Source: Acutalibacteraceae bacterium (lineage in GTDB: Bacteria; Bacillota; Clostridia; Oscillospirales; Acutalibacteraceae). From it: 30,701 bases of DNA. The stretch covers positions 1-30,701 of the forward strand of contig JAZRWX010000228.1 of NCBI GenBank assembly GCA_045599905.1. Direction: 5' to 3'. The translations under genes and the position numbers were made by a program. The first letter of the stretch is position 1. Each line of letters starts with the position of its first letter. This document shows positions 4,891-20,679 of this stretch, in pieces. The notes beneath the pieces were generated by a model that saw only the letters and a list, made by a program, of their open reading frames with translations, had not been told where the DNA came from and searched no databases.

Positions 4891-7800
4891 GTGGACAAAA
4901 GCTCAGGAAAAAGCCATTCACGCAAAAGGAAACGTTATTGTCAGCGCGGCCGCCGGTTCAGGTAAGACGGCTGTTCTGACCGAACGCGTATTTTCATTAC
5001 TTTCCGATCCGGATCATCCGATTTCCGCTGACCGGTTGCTGGTCGTTACTTTTACAAATGCCGCCGCAACGGAAATGCGTACAAGGATCGAAAAACGATT
5101 GGAGGAAGAATGCGCAAAGAATACCGAAAATCATAATGCGCTGATGTACCAGAAACATTTGATTTCCTCGGCAAAAATCTGCACGATCGATTCTTTTTGT
5201 ATTGATCTGATCCGTGAGAATTTTGAGATTGCGAATGTCAGCCCGACTTTCAAAATTGAGGATGAAAACGCCTTACTGCCGATTTATCAGGCAGTATTTG
5301 ATCAATTATTGAATGAACGCCTTTCGGAAAACGATCCCGATTTCCGTGATCTGCTTGACATTGTCGGATGTGAATACGGATTTGACGATTTCCGCAAACG
5401 GGTTATGGAACTGTTTACATACAGCCGTCAGATCCCGTTCCCGGACCGTTATCTGGAACGGTTGAATTATCCGTATTCCATACCGTTTGACCGCGATCAT
5501 CCGTGGTGTTCTTTGGCGTTCGACTGCGCCCATACGCTGATCAACGATCTGCAAAAAAGTATTTCAGCTGCATTGGATCAAGTCGAAAATATTGAAAACG
5601 GCGAAAAGTACAATGATATTTTGACAATGCTTGCCGACGTACTGTTTTCATTGCGTGAAGCCGCTGAAAAACGTGATTGGAACGGTATGCGTGATTTATT
5701 GCTGCTGAAACCGAACATCAGACTTCCCGGGTTTACCGGATCGACCAATGCTATTTATAATGTTTTCAAAGAACCGATCACAGCGGTCAAAGATGCTTTT
5801 TCAACACTTGAAACCACTTTTGAATTAAGTGCAGAAGATATTGAACGCCAAATCAAACGGTTGAGCCGTCCGATCGCTTGTTTGGTTGAATTTGCGCGTG
5901 ATTTTGCCGATCGCACTTTCAAAATGCAGTGTGAAGAAAATCTGTTTACTTTTTACAACACAGAACAGATGGCACTGAATATGCTGTGCCGTCCCGGTGA
6001 AAAGGGAATTGAATTGTTACCGATCACCCAAGTGTTTTTTGATCGGTATGACGCGGTATTGGTTGATGAATATCAGGATGTTAACGATTTGCAGGATATG
6101 CTGTTCCGTATTCTTTCCGATCAGGAAAAGCACCTGTTTGTCGTCGGTGATATCAAGCAAAGTATCTATGCGTTCCGCGGATCAAATCCGGAAATTTTTC
6201 TTGAGCGAAAAAATAAAGCAGTCAATGTCGAAATCGCTGATGATAATTCACTGAAAAAGATTTATCTTACTAAAAATTTCCGAAGTCGCCGTAGAATCTG
6301 TGATTTTGTAAATTTCTTTTTCCGTCAGATCATGACGGAACAGACCGGAAAACTGCAATATGATCAGGATGAAGAATTGGTTTACGGTGCTGAATTTCCG
6401 CCGAATGATGCGCCTGCAACTGAACTTTTGTTTTTGAATGACGCGCCGAAAAATAACGCAGACATTATTGCCGCGGAAGGCAAGCGCATTGCGGATTATA
6501 TTCACAGTGTTATGAATGAAAAACCGTTTTTGAAAGACGGAAACGGTCTTCGTCAGGCAAAGTTCTCGGATTTTGTGATCCTGTTGCGTTCTGTCAGCGG
6601 AAATGATTTTCTTCTGACGGAAGAATTACGCCGTCACGGCATACCGGTTGAACACAGTCCCGATGCGTATTTGTCAACTGTCGAAGTTACTACCGTTTTA
6701 TCATTGTTGAGGATCATCGATAATCCGGATAACGACATTGAACTGCTGACAGTTCTTTTGTCGCCAATATTCGGTTTTTCCGCTGATGAATTGGCGGAAT
6801 GCCGTGCGGCCTGCAAAAACGCTTCGCTGATTTCCGCGATCGCTTTTTCAGCCGAAAACGGGAACGAACACGCAGCGGACTTTCTGACAAAACTTGATGA
6901 ATTCCGACGGGAATCCGCTGTATTGTCCCTGCCGAAATTCTTGATCAGGTTATTACTGATTACTGATTATCTGAATATTGTTTCCGCGATGAGCAACGGT
7001 AATAGCCGCCGACTGAATTTGCAGTTATTAATCACCTACGCTTCGACCTATCATGAACGTTCATCCGGCGGGATCGACGGTTTTCTGAACTACATTGAAA
7101 AACTGCCCCAAGGAACGCTTTCCGCCGCGAAAATCGGCGGCGGTTCGGATGTTGTCCGGATCACCAGTATGCACAAATCCAAAGGTTTACAGTTTCCGAT
7201 ATGCATTTTGGCACATTTGAACGATTCTTTCTTTAACAAGGATACACGCCATAATATGCTGTATGATGATGAGATCGGTATCGGTTTCAAATATTTTGAA
7301 GAAAGCGCATCAAAACGTATTAAAACTGTGGCTTTTGATTTGCTGGAACGCAAAAACAGACAACAACGTTCCGAAGAAGAACTTCGCGTTTTGTACGTTG
7401 CGATGACACGTGCCGAAGAACGTCTTGCTTTGGTGATGCCGTTCGGTGATTTGTACAAAAACGTCTGCAATTGTGCGTGTAATCTTTTACTCAATCAGGG
7501 CAGGGTGGATCACCGTTTCTTTGCCGCCGCATCCTCAATGCGGGACTGGATTCTAATGGCCGTTTTACAGCATCCGGACGCCGTAAATCTGCGTGACGGA
7601 CTTGATTTCCGTCTGCCGACACTTCCGACCGAAAGCCGTTTGACCGTTGATATATCTGATGCGGATATTGTGGAAAATACTTATGAGGAGAATGACACAT
7701 CCGCACCGATCGCCGCTCCGCCGGATCCGGCACTTATAAAGCAGTTGAAAAGTAATCTGTCATATGTTTATCCATACGGCCCGTTGCGCGAGATTGAGGC

Positions 7801-8992: not shown

Positions 8993-9028
8993 AAGTACCG
9001 AAAATCAAAATGATTTTCGGTACTTTTT
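8992..9028 (+). terminator. Terminator of the tRNA
   Basis: AAAGTACCGAAAATCA-AAA-TGATTTTCGGTACTTT followed by T's. Confidence 0.85.
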
Positions 9029-9201
9029 ATTATACAAAAACCGTCGAATTTTGTCAAGAATTTGTGCTATGACCTATTTTAGGCGGTTACAAAGTAAAAA
9101 AACGTCAAGTGATATTAATAAATTTTCCTCTGTAACCGCTCGATACATTTTCAGTATATGAGTGACCTGCGATGAATAAAATGAATCGTGGGGGGATTTT
9201 G

Positions 9202-15019: not shown

Positions 15020-15047
15020 GAGTATACCTCATAGATATATTTATTAT

Positions 15048-15076
15048 ACTATAACACTTTTTCATATAATTTTCAA
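15048..15076 (-). promoter_or_regulatory. sigmaA promoter for the xer gene
   Basis: On the minus strand: TTGAAA, 17-bp spacer, TGnTATAGT. Confidence 0.6.
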
Positions 15077-15084
15077 TCTTAATA

Positions 15085-15113
15085 TTGTGTTTTCGGCTAT
15101 AAAATTATATAAT
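15085..15113 (+). promoter_or_regulatory. sigmaA promoter for the DedA/TVP38 gene, back-to-back with the xer promoter
   Basis: TTGTGT, 17-bp spacer, TATAAT. Confidence 0.55.
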
Positions 15114-15141
15114 TAAATTATCGAGATAGGGAAGTGAAACT

Positions 15142-15840
15142 TTGAAAGATATTCAATTACCGACTAAAAAACTGCTTTCGGCTTTGGCAGTGGTCATACT
15201 GTTGTTGTTTTGGTGTTTGATTGGGTATTATATCGGTAAACCGATGATCCGATTTGCCGAACAGCCGGAACGGTTTCGGTCGTGGGTCGAAAACGGCGGC
15301 ATAGCCAGCCGACTTGTTTTTGTCGGTATGGTCATCATTCAGGTGATCGTTGCCATAATTCCGGGTGAACCGCTTGAACTTGGTGCCGGATACGCATTCG
15401 GCGCAATTGAAGGCGCTATTTTGTGTCTGATCGGATGTTTTCTCGGCGGAATCATCGTATTTGCGCTGGTACGCAGCGTTGGTGTTACTTTGGTAGAAGT
15501 ATTCTTTCCGATCGAAAAAATCCGTTCATTGCATTTCTTGAAAAACCAAAGGAAAGTTAACGTTTTAACTTATCTGATATTTATCTTACCGGGAACGCCA
15601 AAAGATCTTTTGTCATATTTTGTGGGACTGACGGATATGCGATGGGGAACATGGCTGATCATTACCGGTATTGCGCGTATTCCTTCAATCATCACTTCGA
15701 CCTATTGCGGCTCTGCCGCCGGTGCCAAAAATTATGTTGTCGCAATCGTCGCGCTGATCGTGACTGCGTGTATTAGTCTGATCGGTTGGCTGATTTATCA
15801 ATATATCTGTAAAAAACATGAAAATAATGATACTGAATAA
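15142..15840 (+). CDS. TVP38/TMEM64 (DedA superfamily, VTT domain) membrane protein
   Basis: TTG start after AGGGAAG. Motifs QVIVAIIPGEPLELGAGYAFG and LPGTPKDLLSYFVGLT, multiple hydrophobic segments. Confidence 0.88.
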   Translation: MKDIQLPTKKLLSALAVVILLLFWCLIGYYIGKPMIRFAEQPERFRSWVENGGIASRLVFVGMVIIQVIVAIIPGEPLELGAGYAFGAIEGAILCLIGCFLGGIIVFALVRSVGVTLVEVFFPIEKIRSLHFLKNQRKVNVLTYLIFILPGTPKDLLSYFVGLTDMRWGTWLIITGIARIPSIITSTYCGSAAGAKNYVVAIVALIVTACISLIGWLIYQYICKKHENNDTE

Positions 15841-15902
15841 TCCGATGCGATACAAAATAGGAATCATTGGTTACAGGGAATTGGTCTTATTAAACGATAA
15901 CC

Positions 15903-15932
15903 AATTATACAAAATCAATGTTTTGTATAATT
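15903..15932. repeat. Perfect 12-6-12 inverted repeat, candidate recombinase (dif-like) or operator site
   Basis: AATTATACAAAA-TCAATG-TTTTGTATAATT. The repeat is seen directly; the function is inferred. Confidence 0.6.
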
Positions 15933-16211
15933 AAGGGGAGTGGAAAAGCCACTTTTTCAGGTCGTTTTGCTATTTTCGGTGGAACATTGTATTTTGCGCT
16001 AAATATTAATATATTTAATGTGCTTTAATTTAGTGCGCAAGACAAATATAAATCCGGAACTTCTTTCTGCAATACATTATCGTATGATCTTCATTCACTT
16101 CGGATAATGTATCATTATTCTTTATTAAATCAGTCACAAATAAATTTTTTTAATAAAATTTGTCGTTTTACTTGCACTTTTCACCGTTTTGGCGATTTTC
16201 CGAAAAAAGTC

Positions 16212-16267
16212 ATCCTCTCAGTTTTTTTCTGACATATACTGCATCGTCGGAAAAAATCTGAGAGGAT
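16212..16267. other. Long imperfect stem-loop of about 21 bp, terminator or structured RNA candidate
   Basis: ATCCTCTCAG...CTGAGAGGAT outer stem with inner TTTTTTCTGAC/GTCGGAAAAAA. T-rich tracts follow on both strands. Confidence 0.55.
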
Positions 16268-16472
16268 TTTATATTTTTGTAAAAATGTAAAGTTAGCGTC
16301 AAAAGTTTCAAAATCGTGATATACATTGTATTTTTGCATATACGTCCGCTAATACCCGTATTATGATATTATGATCTTCCCGTTCTTACCCAAGGTAGAT
16401 TGCTATACATTATTTAATTCATAGTCATTATTTAAAATCTTAAAATCTCACTTTGTTATATTTTTAACAAAA

Positions 16473-17951
16473 TTATAGTATTATACACACCAGACCGTTA
16501 CAACCCTCGTTAATTACACGCTCGATCGTTTCCTGAATTCTTCCGCGCGCATCGGCCGGCATTCGTGCCAATTTGGTGTGTAAACCTTCGTTGACCAGTT
16601 CATGCAGCGATTTTCCGAAAATATTTGAATCCCATATTTTTACAGGATCATCCTCAAATTGTTTCAACAAATATAAGATCAGGTCTTCCGACTGCTTTTC
16701 GCTTCCGACGATCGGTGTGACCTCGGTCGTGATGTCAGCACGCATCATATGTATTGACGGTGCGGACGCCCGCAAACGAACACCGTAGCGTCCGCCTTGC
16801 TTCATGATTTCCGGCTCATCCAAGGTTAATTCTTCAATTGATGGCATGACGATACCGTAACCGGTTGCTTCGACTTCATCCAGTGCGTTTTTGACGCGCC
16901 GATATTCTTTTTTAATCTGCGACAGATCGGTCATACATTCTAAAAGTTCCTGTTCATCTGCTATTTCCAACCCGGTTTTTTCGGCAAGAATTTTGAAAAA
17001 CAGCGTCGGTTGAAGTTTCAGTTCAATAACGGCACTTCCCTGCCCCAGATCAATGGAATATATACGTGCCTTTTCAACGTTTTCGCTGTCTGAAAACGCG
17101 CTTTCAAAACGACGGATATCACGGATGTGCCGAATATCTTGCACAATGCTGTGAATGCCGCCGGTCAAATCAGCGCGCAGCCAGTGGTCCAAAGATAAAG
17201 AATTCACCCAGCGCGGGAAACGGATTTGAATTTCATGCACGGGAAATTCAAACAAAATCTGTGCCAGTATTGCCCGAACGTCTTCTTCGGTCAGATCCAC
17301 ACAATTGATCGGCAAAACGGTTACGCCGTACTTTTCACCGATTTCATTCGCGGTTTTACGCGCTTCATCGGTATCCGGATCAATGCAGTTCAACAGGACG
17401 ATAAACGGTTTGTTCAATTCCTGCAATTCTCTGATGACACGTTCTTCGGCTTCGGCGTACTCCTCACGCGGAATATCACTGATACTGCCGTCTGTGGTAA
17501 TGACCAATCCGATAGTCGAATGCTCACGTATGACCTTTTCGGTACCGATTTCAGCCGCCATATTAAACGGGATCGGTTCACTGTGCCACGGCGTCATGAC
17601 CATTCGCGGCTGATCGTTTTCAATATACCCGAGTGCGCTCGGAACAATATAACCAACACAGTCGATCAACCGTACATTCATGGCGGCAGTCGGATCAATC
17701 ATGATCTGAACGCCTTTTTCGGGGACAAATTTCGGTTCAGTTGTCATGATCGTGCGACCGGATGAGGCCTGCGGCATTTCATCGCTGGCGCGCTCTTTCT
17801 GAAATTCCTGCGGAATATTCGGTAGTACCAGTTCCTCCATAAAACGTTTGATAAATGTTGATTTTCCCGTTCTGACCGGACCAACGACCCCAATATAGAT
17901 ATCACCGCCCGTTCGTGCGGAAATATCATGGTAAATGCTTGTATTTGTCAT
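16473..17951 (-). CDS. spoIVA: Stage IV sporulation protein A
   Basis: GGAGG RBS, ATG at 17951, 492 aa. IYIGVVGPVRTGKSTFIKRFM, TTEPKF, DCVGY and the C-terminal INEGCNGLVCIIL. Confidence 0.97.
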   Translation of the reverse strand: MTNTSIYHDISARTGGDIYIGVVGPVRTGKSTFIKRFMEELVLPNIPQEFQKERASDEMPQASSGRTIMTTEPKFVPEKGVQIMIDPTAAMNVRLIDCVGYIVPSALGYIENDQPRMVMTPWHSEPIPFNMAAEIGTEKVIREHSTIGLVITTDGSISDIPREEYAEAEERVIRELQELNKPFIVLLNCIDPDTDEARKTANEIGEKYGVTVLPINCVDLTEEDVRAILAQILFEFPVHEIQIRFPRWVNSLSLDHWLRADLTGGIHSIVQDIRHIRDIRRFESAFSDSENVEKARIYSIDLGQGSAVIELKLQPTLFFKILAEKTGLEIADEQELLECMTDLSQIKKEYRRVKNALDEVEATGYGIVMPSIEELTLDEPEIMKQGGRYGVRLRASAPSIHMMRADITTEVTPIVGSEKQSEDLILYLLKQFEDDPVKIWDSNIFGKSLHELVNEGLHTKLARMPADARGRIQETIERVINEGCNGLVCIIL

Positions 17952-17989
17952 AAACATTCCTCCGAAGACTGAATTATCATTCTGTTTCA

Positions 17990-18018
17990 AGAATATGAAG
18001 GTTCTGAATAGTTTATGA
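17990..18018 (-). promoter_or_regulatory. sigmaE-type promoter of spoIVA
   Basis: On the minus strand: TCATAAA, 14-bp spacer, CATATTCT, fitting (T/G)(A/C)ATA(A/T)(A/T)-N14-CATAnnnT. spoIVA is a known sigmaE target. Confidence 0.75.
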
Positions 18019-18019
18019 C

Positions 18020-18054
18020 AAAAAACGGATGGTACCGAATTACGATACCATCCG
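18020..18054 (-). terminator. Terminator of the class A PBP gene
   Basis: CGGATGGTA/TACCATCCG stem followed by TTTTTT on the minus strand. Confidence 0.8.
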
Positions 18055-18063
18055 CCGGTAGTA

Positions 18064-20679
18064 TTATTGAGTTGTTGCGGGCTGACCGGTCGTAGAATCG
18101 GTCGGCTGCTGGGTGTTACCGCCGTTATCACCAGTCGGGTTTTCGGCAGGAGCGGTGCTTTGAGGCGGCACGCTACTTGCCGGTGTTTCGGAAGGTGTTA
18201 CTGTGGACGGTGTATTATCGGTGGTAGATTGTGTACCGGATGAAGTTCCGCCGTTATTGGTATTAGAAGAATTCTTTGAATTGTTTTGCGAGGAATTGTT
18301 CTTCTTATCATTTGAATTCGGCTTACTGTCGGAAGCATCCGAAGAACCACCGCCGCAGCGGGTACATTTGGCAGGAACATTACTGGAACGGAACCAACCG
18401 AGTTCTTTTGAACAGCCGCTGCTTGCGATCAGACCGGAGGATTTACAGTAATATGCCTCCACAACGTCCGAACAATCTTCAAACTGTTTATTGCTCAAAT
18501 CAGAATGAACACTGCTCATGATCGTTCCCCAGAGTTTTTTGGCGATATTGGTATCGGGTATGCGTACTTTTTGATTGTTCGTGTTGTCATAACCGCACCA
18601 GCAGGATGCCACATAATACGGTGTACCGCCGCAGAACCAAAGGTCACACTCATCGTTGGTCGTACCGGTCTTACCGTATACGGCCATCTTCGGGAAATAT
18701 GATTTGATCATGGTCGCCGTACCGTTTTTCACGACGTTCTGTAACAAATGATTCATGACGTCGGCGGAATCCGGCGCAATAACGTAATGACCGCGCGCAT
18801 TTTCACGGTTCAGTATGACTTCACCTTTTTCATTTCGCAACGGCTCACCGTGTGAATTTAATACCTTTGTGTAGAAATGCGGTTCATAATAAAAACCGTG
18901 ATTGCCGAAAATGGCGTACGCCGCTGCTGATTCAAGTGTTGTCAAACCGCCGTTTGTACCGCCCATGCCCAAAGGTGCCAGGTTCAGATCTCCGTTGCCG
19001 CCCGGTGTCAGGGTCGTGAATCCAAGTGATTTTGTCATGAATTCATAACTGGTTTCCAGTCCCAGTTTTTCATCCAGCAATTTGACCGGAACGGTATTCA
19101 GCGACTGCTCCAAAGCATATTTAATGGAAACATTCGCACCGTGACCGCCCATATTGCCGTAGTTGGCAACACGCCATTCACCGTAGTTTTTGCTTAAATC
19201 CTGGATCAGCATCGAATAATAAATATCATTATTATCCATACATGCTGAATAGACCGACAACGGTTTAATAGAGGAACCCGGCTGACGTATCGCGGAAGTC
19301 GCGCGGTTGAAAGAACGGTTTACTTTTTTCTTTCCGATCCCGCCGACAATACCGCGAACATTGCCTTTGTAATCGACAATGGTCATTGCCGACTGCATTT
19401 TTGTTCCGTTACTGCCGACCAAACCGTAGGTGTTACGGTCTTTGTAAACCGCTTCCATTTTTGACTGGATTTCGGGATCGACCGTCGCGTAGATCTTATA
19501 ACCGCCATTATAAAGCATTCGGCTTGCGTATTTGGAATCCCAATCGTTTTCTTTCGCAAGTTGTTTTGTTATATCGTCGATCAGACCGTCGATAAAGTAA
19601 GAATTGACCGTATCGCCCGCAAGCATGGATTTTTTGCAAACGACCTTCAATTCTTCATCGCGCGCGGACTTATATTCCTCTTTCGTGATGTACCCTTGAT
19701 TGTACATTTCGGAAAGAACGGTATTGCGGCGTTTTAAGCTTTCTTCCTCGTTAAGGTCCGGTGAATACAAGGACGGATTCTTGGTAATGCCGGCGATCGT
19801 TGCGCATTCAGCCAATGTAAGATTATTGACTTTTTTATTAAAATAATAGTTTGCCGCGACCTGAACGCCCTTAATATTATGGCCAAGCGCGATCTGATTC
19901 AGATAGCATTCCATAATAACGTCTTTGGAATAATGCTCTTCCAGATAGCGCGCGTTCATGATTTCACGGATTTTGCGGCTCGCGTTCTGCTGATCGTCTA
20001 GCGTCAGGTTTTTGACCAACTGTTGTGTGACGGTGGAACCGCCCTGATTCGATGCGTAAAAATGCAGGAACATATTGGCGAACGCCGAAAATGTACGTTT
20101 CCAGTCAGTTCCCTGATGCTGATAAAAACGCTTGTCTTCGATCGCGACGACGGCGTTGACCATGTTCTGCGGAATACCACGGTATCCTTTTTCGTTTTTG
20201 GATGCCGCATTGTGATCATATTCGACCCAGATACAGTTATTGTCACCTTGCAGGCGTTTATATTCCTTATACCCGCCTTTCCCGTTATCGACGTATATGA
20301 TCGTCGTGAACAGGGCTTCAAGGTCATTCAGGTTGAATTCATCGACCGTAGTATCGACCATGGTGAAGAAATAAAGCAAAAACGCGCCGATAACAACGCT
20401 GAATGTAATAACGCCGACCAAAAATATAGACAGAATGGTCATCAACAACCGACGCTTGCGTTTTTGACGATGGTTCATTTTCTTTTCATTTTTTTCTGCG
20501 GCGGCAGATGAAAAACTGAAAAGATCCACGACTTCCCCATCCGAAACAGCGGACTGGTTCTGACTGCTTGAATCCGAAAAGAAATTCGGAATATCCAAAT
20601 TATCCGAACGTTGATCATTAGTACCGTAATCGTTCAGATCCTGCGATTCATCCTGCGGATATTCAAAAAATTCGGACAT
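18064..20679 (-). CDS. Class A penicillin-binding protein (PBP1A family, transglycosylase/transpeptidase)
   Basis: GGAGGTG RBS, ATG at 20679. GT51 motifs EDKRFYQHQG, GGSTVTQQLVKN, RKIRE. Transpeptidase SSIK, SLN, KTGT. One TM helix and a low-complexity C-terminal tail. Confidence 0.93.
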   Translation of the reverse strand: MSEFFEYPQDESQDLNDYGTNDQRSDNLDIPNFFSDSSSQNQSAVSDGEVVDLFSFSSAAAEKNEKKMNHRQKRKRRLLMTILSIFLVGVITFSVVIGAFLLYFFTMVDTTVDEFNLNDLEALFTTIIYVDNGKGGYKEYKRLQGDNNCIWVEYDHNAASKNEKGYRGIPQNMVNAVVAIEDKRFYQHQGTDWKRTFSAFANMFLHFYASNQGGSTVTQQLVKNLTLDDQQNASRKIREIMNARYLEEHYSKDVIMECYLNQIALGHNIKGVQVAANYYFNKKVNNLTLAECATIAGITKNPSLYSPDLNEEESLKRRNTVLSEMYNQGYITKEEYKSARDEELKVVCKKSMLAGDTVNSYFIDGLIDDITKQLAKENDWDSKYASRMLYNGGYKIYATVDPEIQSKMEAVYKDRNTYGLVGSNGTKMQSAMTIVDYKGNVRGIVGGIGKKKVNRSFNRATSAIRQPGSSIKPLSVYSACMDNNDIYYSMLIQDLSKNYGEWRVANYGNMGGHGANVSIKYALEQSLNTVPVKLLDEKLGLETSYEFMTKSLGFTTLTPGGNGDLNLAPLGMGGTNGGLTTLESAAAYAIFGNHGFYYEPHFYTKVLNSHGEPLRNEKGEVILNRENARGHYVIAPDSADVMNHLLQNVVKNGTATMIKSYFPKMAVYGKTGTTNDECDLWFCGGTPYYVASCWCGYDNTNNQKVRIPDTNIAKKLWGTIMSSVHSDLSNKQFEDCSDVVEAYYCKSSGLIASSGCSKELGWFRSSNVPAKCTRCGGGSSDASDSKPNSNDKKNNSSQNNSKNSSNTNNGGTSSGTQSTTDNTPSTVTPSETPASSVPPQSTAPAENPTGDNGGNTQQPTDSTTGQPATTQ

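Follow-up and report, generated by a model that had tools for sequence, protein, structure and literature searches.

A palindromic site between convergent genes

The window analyzed here, i.e., a stretch of 30,701 nucleotides from an Acutalibacteraceae bacterium, is the entire contig C228 of its own assembly. It carries the genes of a 334-residue tyrosine recombinase, a VTT/DedA-type membrane protein and spoIVA, and the latter two converge on a non-coding gap (Table 1). Within this gap lies a 30-bp palindrome at positions 15903-15932, AATTATACAAAA-TCAATG-TTTTGTATAATT, followed by a short G-rich flank, AAGGGGAG.

Table 1. Features around the palindromic site, in window coordinates.
Feature	Position	Strand	Remarks
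Tyrosine recombinase gene, 334 aa	14015..15019	-	Pfam Phage_integrase 2e-40; proposed sole catalyst at the site
Promoter-like site of the recombinase gene	15048..15076	-	TTGAAA-17-TATAGT with TG; consensus scan, 10/12 matches
VTT/DedA-type membrane protein gene	15142..15840	+	Pfam VTT_dom 7.5e-16; between recombinase gene and site; outside the proposed mechanism
Non-coding gap holding the site	15841..16472	.	From ORF list; 632 bp, between convergent genes; local replication-terminus region
Left arm AATTATACAAAA	15903..15914	.	Proposed recombinase-binding half-site; read directly; identical in most relatives across families
Spacer TCAATG	15915..15920	+	Proposed strand-exchange region; differs among genomes, arms constant
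Right arm TTTTGTATAATT	15921..15932	.	Read directly; the same arm forms the single half-sites in arrays before relatives' recombinase gene
Extended -10-like TGTATAAT	15924-15931		Within the right arm
G-rich flank AAGGGGAG	15933..15940	+	Conserved; directly 3' of the right arm; gives the site its direction
spoIVA	16473-18131	-	Right of the site

Direct reading of these positions confirmed the perfect 12-6-12 repeat with an asymmetric spacer on which the original prediction was built. The arrangement agrees with the layout of a dif site, i.e., two inverted arms of about 11-13 bp around a 6-8-bp centre. The palindrome had no second match in the window with up to three mismatches, 100 dinucleotide shuffles yielded no match, and it was single-copy in the own assembly (1.86 Mb in 334 contigs, 83% complete). 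The window contains five other perfect 12-nt inverted repeats, mostly at gene ends, compared with none in 20 shuffles. Arm symmetry alone is therefore weak evidence, and the weight of the argument comes from conservation. Palindrome and G-rich flank together make up a polar element of about 40 bp, longer than first noted.

The strand switch described earlier at this position is real. The site sits in the 632-bp gap of convergent genes, GC skew amounts to +0.055 over the 8 kb to its left and to -0.048 over the 8 kb to its right, and the cumulative G-C count has its maximum for the window at position 16,000. The membrane protein gene separates the site from the recombinase gene by about 880 bp; in the closest relative (locus L065), the corresponding site lies 917 bp upstream.

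Just past the flank, at 15937-15957, we observed a hairpin with a T run (GTGG-AAAAG-CCAC-TTTTT; seven pairs in the RNA fold). It was not called by the terminator scan and could provide the end for a very short transcript begun at the -10 box of the right arm. A small ORF past the site (GTG at 15941, 20 codons) was discarded, as it is absent as a conserved ORF in the closest relative. Right after the tRNA-Thr gene, a weak site-like sequence at 9027-9060 (TTATTATACAAAA, 9 nt, TTTTGTCAAGAA) is probably due to chance or part of a terminator.

Conservation across Clostridia and position opposite dnaA

With up to three mismatches, the 24 specified bases of the palindrome were found in 20 of 41 relatives, nearly always as one copy, and control matches were zero. 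Among the sites of these relatives the arms are constant and the spacers differ. A loose 20-base pattern at three mismatches was abandoned, as control matches were as frequent as real ones; instead we used a strict core, TATACAAAA-N6-TTTTGTATA, with at most one mismatch. This core was present in 94 of 301 genomes of the order Oscillospirales (5 control matches), mostly once per genome, and in 84 of 351 class-wide genomes (about 14 control matches), many of them from other orders. Occurrence as a single copy, one of the checks proposed for the site, hence holds for the own assembly and for most relatives that carry the site, with low control counts. About two thirds of the order genomes gave no strict-core match; the sole variant site located among these was that of G030. 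Lineage variants alter both arms jointly, i.e., to GCGCAAAA/TTTTGCGC, CTATAC/GTATAG, TTAAAC/GTTTAA or ACTAAA/TTTAGT. Such mirrored changes are expected from one binding specificity acting on both arms.

Some irregularities accompany this pattern. In G022, G023, G109, G154 and G322, the site is close to a contig end (positions 117-359), and some genomes have two or three copies of it on different contigs; assemblies broken by repeats around inserted elements could account for both. G026 has a second full site (L035, G026:C42:5106-5135), which is surrounded by several single arms on a contig of 6.7 kb; a gene for a group II intron reverse transcriptase lies at a distance of 2.1 kb. Single arm copies at 0.7-7 kb from full sites are in some cases in excess of chance. 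We rejected the idea that they are relics of inserted elements, since the interval in L036 contains sporulation genes and the copy in L031 lies inside a gene.

The own genome is fragmented, so that its terminus was inferred from the 30-kb contig and from relatives. In five complete genomes, site and dnaA are separated by 48.6% (G033), 49.5% (G234), 49.8% (G260), 49.7% (G093) and 48.9% (G060) of the chromosome. These distances, together with the G-C maximum beside the site in the window, bear out the expectation that it lies near the skew inversion. G292, likewise complete, was kept out of the five because its two candidates, 48.4% and 43.6% of the chromosome from dnaA, were indistinguishable. 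In G033, skew calculated in sampled 20-kb blocks was positive in 10 of the 11 blocks preceding the site, all 9 blocks beyond it were negative, and the sign changed at most 2 kb from the site. Local skew was higher on the left side in 17 of 18 loci, with a sign change at the site in L059-L061, L145 and L148. The position does not follow the recombinase gene: in G234, G260 and G093 this gene is 145-870 kb off, and the site is still at the dnaA antipode. In the own genus, the 334-residue gene is often found 48-60 kb from the site on the same contig. One copy per chromosome and a place at the terminus, where the skew switches opposite oriC (the latter from relatives), are the attributes of a dif site.

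To define the direction of the element, 73 distinct sites were oriented by their G-richer flank. At least four G at positions +2 to +8 occur in 64 of these 73 sites, whereas the share for random places is 7%. For the flank, the consensus reads nAGGGGAG, and the spacer in the same frame is T-[G/A]-A-A-[T/A]-[A/G]. The flank was also kept in eight of nine same-genus loci in which the recombinase gene does not adjoin the site. Counted over 416 kb sampled from G033 (L039-L058), the 7-mers with the strongest strand polarity were AGGGAAG (45:8, leading versus lagging), AGGGGAA (32:4) and CAGGGAA (46:12), which are candidate FtsK/SpoIIIE-orienting words for the order. Since AGGGGAG resembles the strand-polar AGGGAAG, the flank itself might be such a signal. 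The element could then represent an undescribed Xer type, in which a symmetric dif would receive its direction from the AGGGGAG flank, instead of from two unlike arms, as a built-in FtsK/SpoIIIE signal choosing the first-firing recombinase; we consider this doubtful.

Recombinases linked to the site

The 334-residue protein belongs to the tyrosine recombinase superfamily (Pfam PF00589, 138.7 bits at a cut-off of 27.1). A comparison of five orthologs showed no variation at R172, K195/K198, H267, R270, H294 and Y303, the residues of the R, K, H-x-x-R, H and Y motifs. The protein stays below the cut-offs of the models for XerC (TIGR02224, 215.3 versus 335.15 bits), XerD (TIGR02225, 198.2 versus 329.6 bits) and XerS (NCBIfam NF003462, cut-off 267 bits, with 137.1 reached by the window protein and 146-149 by orthologs), and with 191 bits it is just below the cut-off of 220 of the NCBIfam XerA model. 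By sequence score, the nearest solved structures in the PDB are E. coli XerD (131.6 bits), then XerA. The match to the XerH structures 5jjv/5jk0 (53.6 bits, E 2e-13) is weaker than both and argues against XerH membership. Related Atlas clusters bear automatic XerC- or XerD-family names. Judged by these scores, the protein is a divergent XerC/D-type recombinase outside the XerS and XerH families. It had been described earlier as XerS-like, which is appropriate for the gene layout and not for the protein, given its 137 bits against the 267 of the XerS family and its higher scores with XerC, XerD and XerA.

Of the 301 order genomes, 279 have one ortholog of this protein, as do 253 of the 351 genomes sampled across the class. 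Among 80 fetched loci, 48 have the site upstream of the ortholog, usually at a distance of 15-200 bp, and none has it downstream. Moreover, coordinate comparison in other orders placed site and gene at most about 150 bp apart in 33 genomes, which represent eight families. The proposal that such a site should be conserved near orthologous xer genes was hence supported. Linkage of gene and site is characteristic of a single-recombinase Xer module. Six near-complete genomes (see below) keep the site with this Xer-like gene only, and from the phyletic pattern a second catalytic Xer appears dispensable.

An XerD-like paralog of about 296 residues has a patchy distribution among the relatives; it passes the NF001399 subfamily cut-off and scores 296-315 compared with 329.6 for the XerD equivalog. 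The own-genome copy (293 aa) is located on contig C328 (L038:1319-2200). The XerD-like gene is always preceded by an unannotated gene of about 210-240 aa with no Pfam or NCBIfam match (own copy, L021-L029). With this paralog, the site could be a dif served by two recombinases, the 334-residue protein acting as XerC and the XerD-like protein as XerD, in a heterotetramer as in E. coli or B. subtilis. Gene neighbourhood would fit such an arrangement. Both genes are present in the own genome, and seven genomes of the same genus have the site 60-220 bp beyond the 3' end of the XerD-like gene; in the own genus it is usually found beside this gene rather than beside the 334-residue one. XerD-like gene, 334-residue gene and site are adjacent in G040 and G118 and all within 10 kb in G033. 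Also, when we compared the arm with the XerD arm of B. subtilis dif (sequence from the 2011 survey), 8 of 11 bases were identical. The arrangement is improbable all the same. Identical arms suit one specificity, yet the two proteins are about 27-32% identical. Of the 41 relatives, 14 yielded no XerD-like gene, among them six genomes (G013, G026, G027, G035, G038 and G039, 93-98% complete) with a perfect site. In those six, the 334-residue ortholog is the best match to the XerD model (193-219 bits), and the next one reaches at most 99 bits. Furthermore, the first catalytic Arg is replaced by Lys in seven of nine XerD-like proteins, and they have not kept the GKGxKER hairpin, which holds the catalytic Lys of E. 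coli XerD. By analogy, these features suggest a non-catalytic role, e.g., SMC unloading, which has been reported for B. subtilis XerD as cited in PMC13342612. Where present, the XerD-like protein may have a part in site function.

An exception in gene content is G037 of family f14. In this genome (100% complete) we found neither a match to the 334-residue recombinase nor an XerD-like gene nor a strict site, and its best match to the XerD model amounts to 72.7 bits. The other f14 genomes have the recombinase in 20 of 21 cases and a strict-core site in none.

The arms can also be read as promoter elements, each being a near-perfect extended -10 box with TGTATAAT within it, and their conservation could in part result from promoter use. 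Where the ancestral layout is kept, 8-20 nt separate the end of the site from the recombinase start codon. As read from the sequence, the flank there probably serves as Shine-Dalgarno sequence and TGTATAAT of the right arm as extended -10 box of the recombinase gene. Some lineages whose full site has moved elsewhere have directly repeated single arms TTTTGTATAAT, two to four per array, at 60-160 bp upstream of the gene (L081, L082 at 5084-5190, L084, L085, L087), and the single arms of L141 (9876-9925) have their own lineage variant, TTTTGTATAAGT. The arrays, including that of L141, hence tie the arm sequence to the recombinase gene, and they suggest a possible autoregulation of this gene through half-sites. 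In the window's own 120-bp region before the recombinase gene (15020-15141), no arm-like half-sites were found.

On these grounds the palindrome might be a promoter or operator only, i.e., a pair of divergent extended -10 boxes with a dimeric repressor site for the recombinase or a neighbouring gene. This is very improbable, because the site stays at the dnaA antipode and the skew flip even where the recombinase gene is far off, no gene follows it in the window according to the ORF list, lineage variants such as TTTTGCGCAATT lose the -10 box and keep the symmetry, and a prophage without integrase has inserted at the spacer (see below). An operator had been named as the main alternative to a dif site. 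As the main role, it is at odds with a site that keeps its terminus position when the gene is far away; as a second role, it is compatible with a right arm that forms an extended -10 box before the ribosome-binding site in the ancestral layout.

Mobile elements at the site and relation to known Xer systems

In G118, a microvirus prophage of 5,635 bp (L184, G118:C8:47322-52990) is inserted exactly at the site, 16 bp upstream of the recombinase ortholog. It encodes a capsid protein (1e-183), a pilot protein, a replication initiator (2e-99) and a DNA-binding protein; an integrase gene is absent. The prophage lies between a full and a hybrid site, which have a 19-bp direct repeat in common, TATTCATTTTGTTTAATTT, consisting of spacer and arm and starting at the first spacer base; the two copies are 5,635 bp apart. 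The XerD-like gene, like the recombinase ortholog, is found beside the prophage. The skew of the contig turns negative at the prophage. At the phage-side junction, a G-rich flank of its own, TAAGGGGGG, adjoins a perfect arm, which would fit a flank that belongs to the functional site. A free member of the Microviridae from elk feces (MG945286, 5,332 nt) carries in non-coding DNA one perfect and one degenerate arm with the spacer TATTCA, which is the commonest host spacer. The pattern in MG945440 is similar, and the degenerate arm is not the same one in the two phages examined. For gokushoviruses of E. coli, XerC/XerD-dependent integration with the same signature has been shown experimentally (PMC7062461).

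Perfect arms were also found in 17 IMG/VR contigs (L151-L167), of which two are host fragments and the other 15 have their own spacers. Three of these contigs were annotated and contain terminase, portal or capsid genes, and in tailed-phage contigs of 26-55 kb the arms lie in non-coding DNA. L159 in addition encodes a ParB-like protein, which suggests a phage-plasmid whose multimers are resolved by the host recombinase. BLAST searches with the 30-mer yielded only noise against plasmids and mostly noise against phages, save four fecal or microvirus records.

An attachment site for integrase-bearing mobile elements, or a structural hairpin or bidirectional terminator between the convergent genes, would match the position between such genes, a predicted 13-pair stem inside an RNA structure of -20.5 kcal/mol (z = -3.0) and the 17 viral contigs with arms, but is highly unlikely. 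An integrase is lacking in the prophage found at the site, and in the phage contigs the arms are internal and surround spacers of their own. Neither arm is followed by a T tail and the terminator scan made no call, in line with the original assessment as a poor terminator. A terminator or hairpin was rejected for the order-wide single-copy conservation, terminators being neither single-copy nor conserved across orders nor fixed at the terminus.

We therefore propose that the element is, very probably, the chromosomal dif of an Xer-type dimer-resolution system used across the class Clostridia, with the 334-residue protein assigned as catalyst from linkage and phyletic pattern. The uncharacterised clostridial Xer/dif system suggested at the outset is thus supported by single copy, terminus position and linkage to orthologous recombinase genes. 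Mirrored arm changes, sites kept in genomes in which no XerD-like gene was found, and the integrase-less phage inserted at the spacer are in favour of it as well. In the proposed mechanism, two copies of the 334-residue recombinase would bind the two identical 12-bp arms, and the two sites of a chromosome dimer would pair at the closing septum. Strand exchange across the 6-bp spacer by the recombinase would then restore two monomers. Control by the FtsK translocase is probable; an FtsK with gamma domain is encoded in the own genome. The ordered spacer, together with the G-rich flank, would give the site its polarity. Where the right arm and flank double as -10 box and ribosome-binding site, as in the ancestral layout, an occupied site would repress the recombinase gene. 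What bears indirectly on binding, cleavage and dimer resolution by an Xer recombinase is the gene linkage, the half-site arrays and the prophage at the spacer. Binding, cleavage, strand order, FtsK dependence and autoregulation at the site are what we infer only from these comparisons.

If confirmed, the assignment would fill a gap in dif knowledge for a class that comprises many dominant gut and rumen commensals. The 2011 dif survey failed for C. perfringens and C. beijerinckii, and its predictions for C. botulinum were about 175 degrees off the skew shift point. TTTTGT occurs in none of the sites listed in that survey, and no site of the palindromic type is found there. The 2017 Xer review does not mention Clostridia (PMC5357621), and our literature search with the exact 11-mer and by topic, which covered sources outside subscription journals, retrieved no description of the site. 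A defined site with a candidate single recombinase would permit exact terminus mapping in genomes and metagenome bins, and the compact recombinase-site pair might be of use as a genetic tool in Clostridia. As one more independent example of an Xer system with a single recombinase, it would be directly testable in vitro. Moreover, the site offers a possible route for integrase-less microviruses of gut Clostridia, and perhaps for phage-plasmids, to integrate or to resolve multimers.

Compared with XerCD/dif of E. coli or B. subtilis (CodV/RipX), the element has in common the 6-bp spacer, arms of about 11 bp, the terminus position and FtsK, and its recombinase scores best with the XerC and XerD models. 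In contrast, XerCD/dif has two different arms and two catalytic recombinases encoded by unlinked genes, and the inner dyad of its dif is ATAA-N6-TTAT, compared with AAAA-N6-TTTT in identical arms here. A search for the canonical Firmicute dif in the five complete relatives did not exceed chance (3 matches versus 8 control matches, none with the ATAA/TTAT dyad). Archaeal XerA, like the protein studied here, is a single XerC/D-like recombinase and acts on a 28-bp dif. However, this system is archaeal and reported to be FtsK-independent (PMC5357621), whereas an FtsK with gamma domain is found here.

The microviruses with the site resemble known Xer-exploiting elements, i.e., gokushovirus prophages at E. 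coli dif (PMC7062461) and microvirus proviruses of Bacteroidetes (PMC3091885), which are likewise integrase-less, lie between a full and a hybrid site and have free relatives with a partly degenerate site copy in non-coding DNA. Here, in contrast, the hosts are Clostridia and the site is palindromic.

The closest parallels are the single-recombinase systems. The AAAA-N6-TTTT feature of difSL and difH named in the original prediction agrees with the arm sequences in the 2017 review (PMC5357621). In XerS/difSL of Streptococcus and Lactococcus, as described in the original report (Le Bourgeois 2007, PMC1914069), one recombinase gene likewise lies by an atypical terminus dif with A-runs at the borders of its central region, a second XerD-like protein with impaired catalytic motifs exists alongside, and the authors considered that the site is perhaps part of the promoter of the recombinase gene. 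The arms are perfect and arranged 12-6-12 here, whereas the 31-bp difSL has imperfect arms that are unequal to each other, and its central region is given as 11 bp (PMC5357621). Also, our protein is not a member of the XerS family, and the range is the class Clostridia compared with Streptococcaceae for XerS. XerH/difH of Helicobacter and Campylobacter similarly combines a single recombinase with a site near its gene and AAAA...TTTT inner arms (PMC5357621). Yet sequence similarity to XerH is weak next to that with E. coli XerD (cf. the scores above), and the arms of difH are imperfect, with 11 and 10 bp (PMC5357621). By this comparison, the single-recombinase Xer layout with a linked site would be known from XerS/difSL and XerH/difH, and what appears new is the present form of dif and recombinase.
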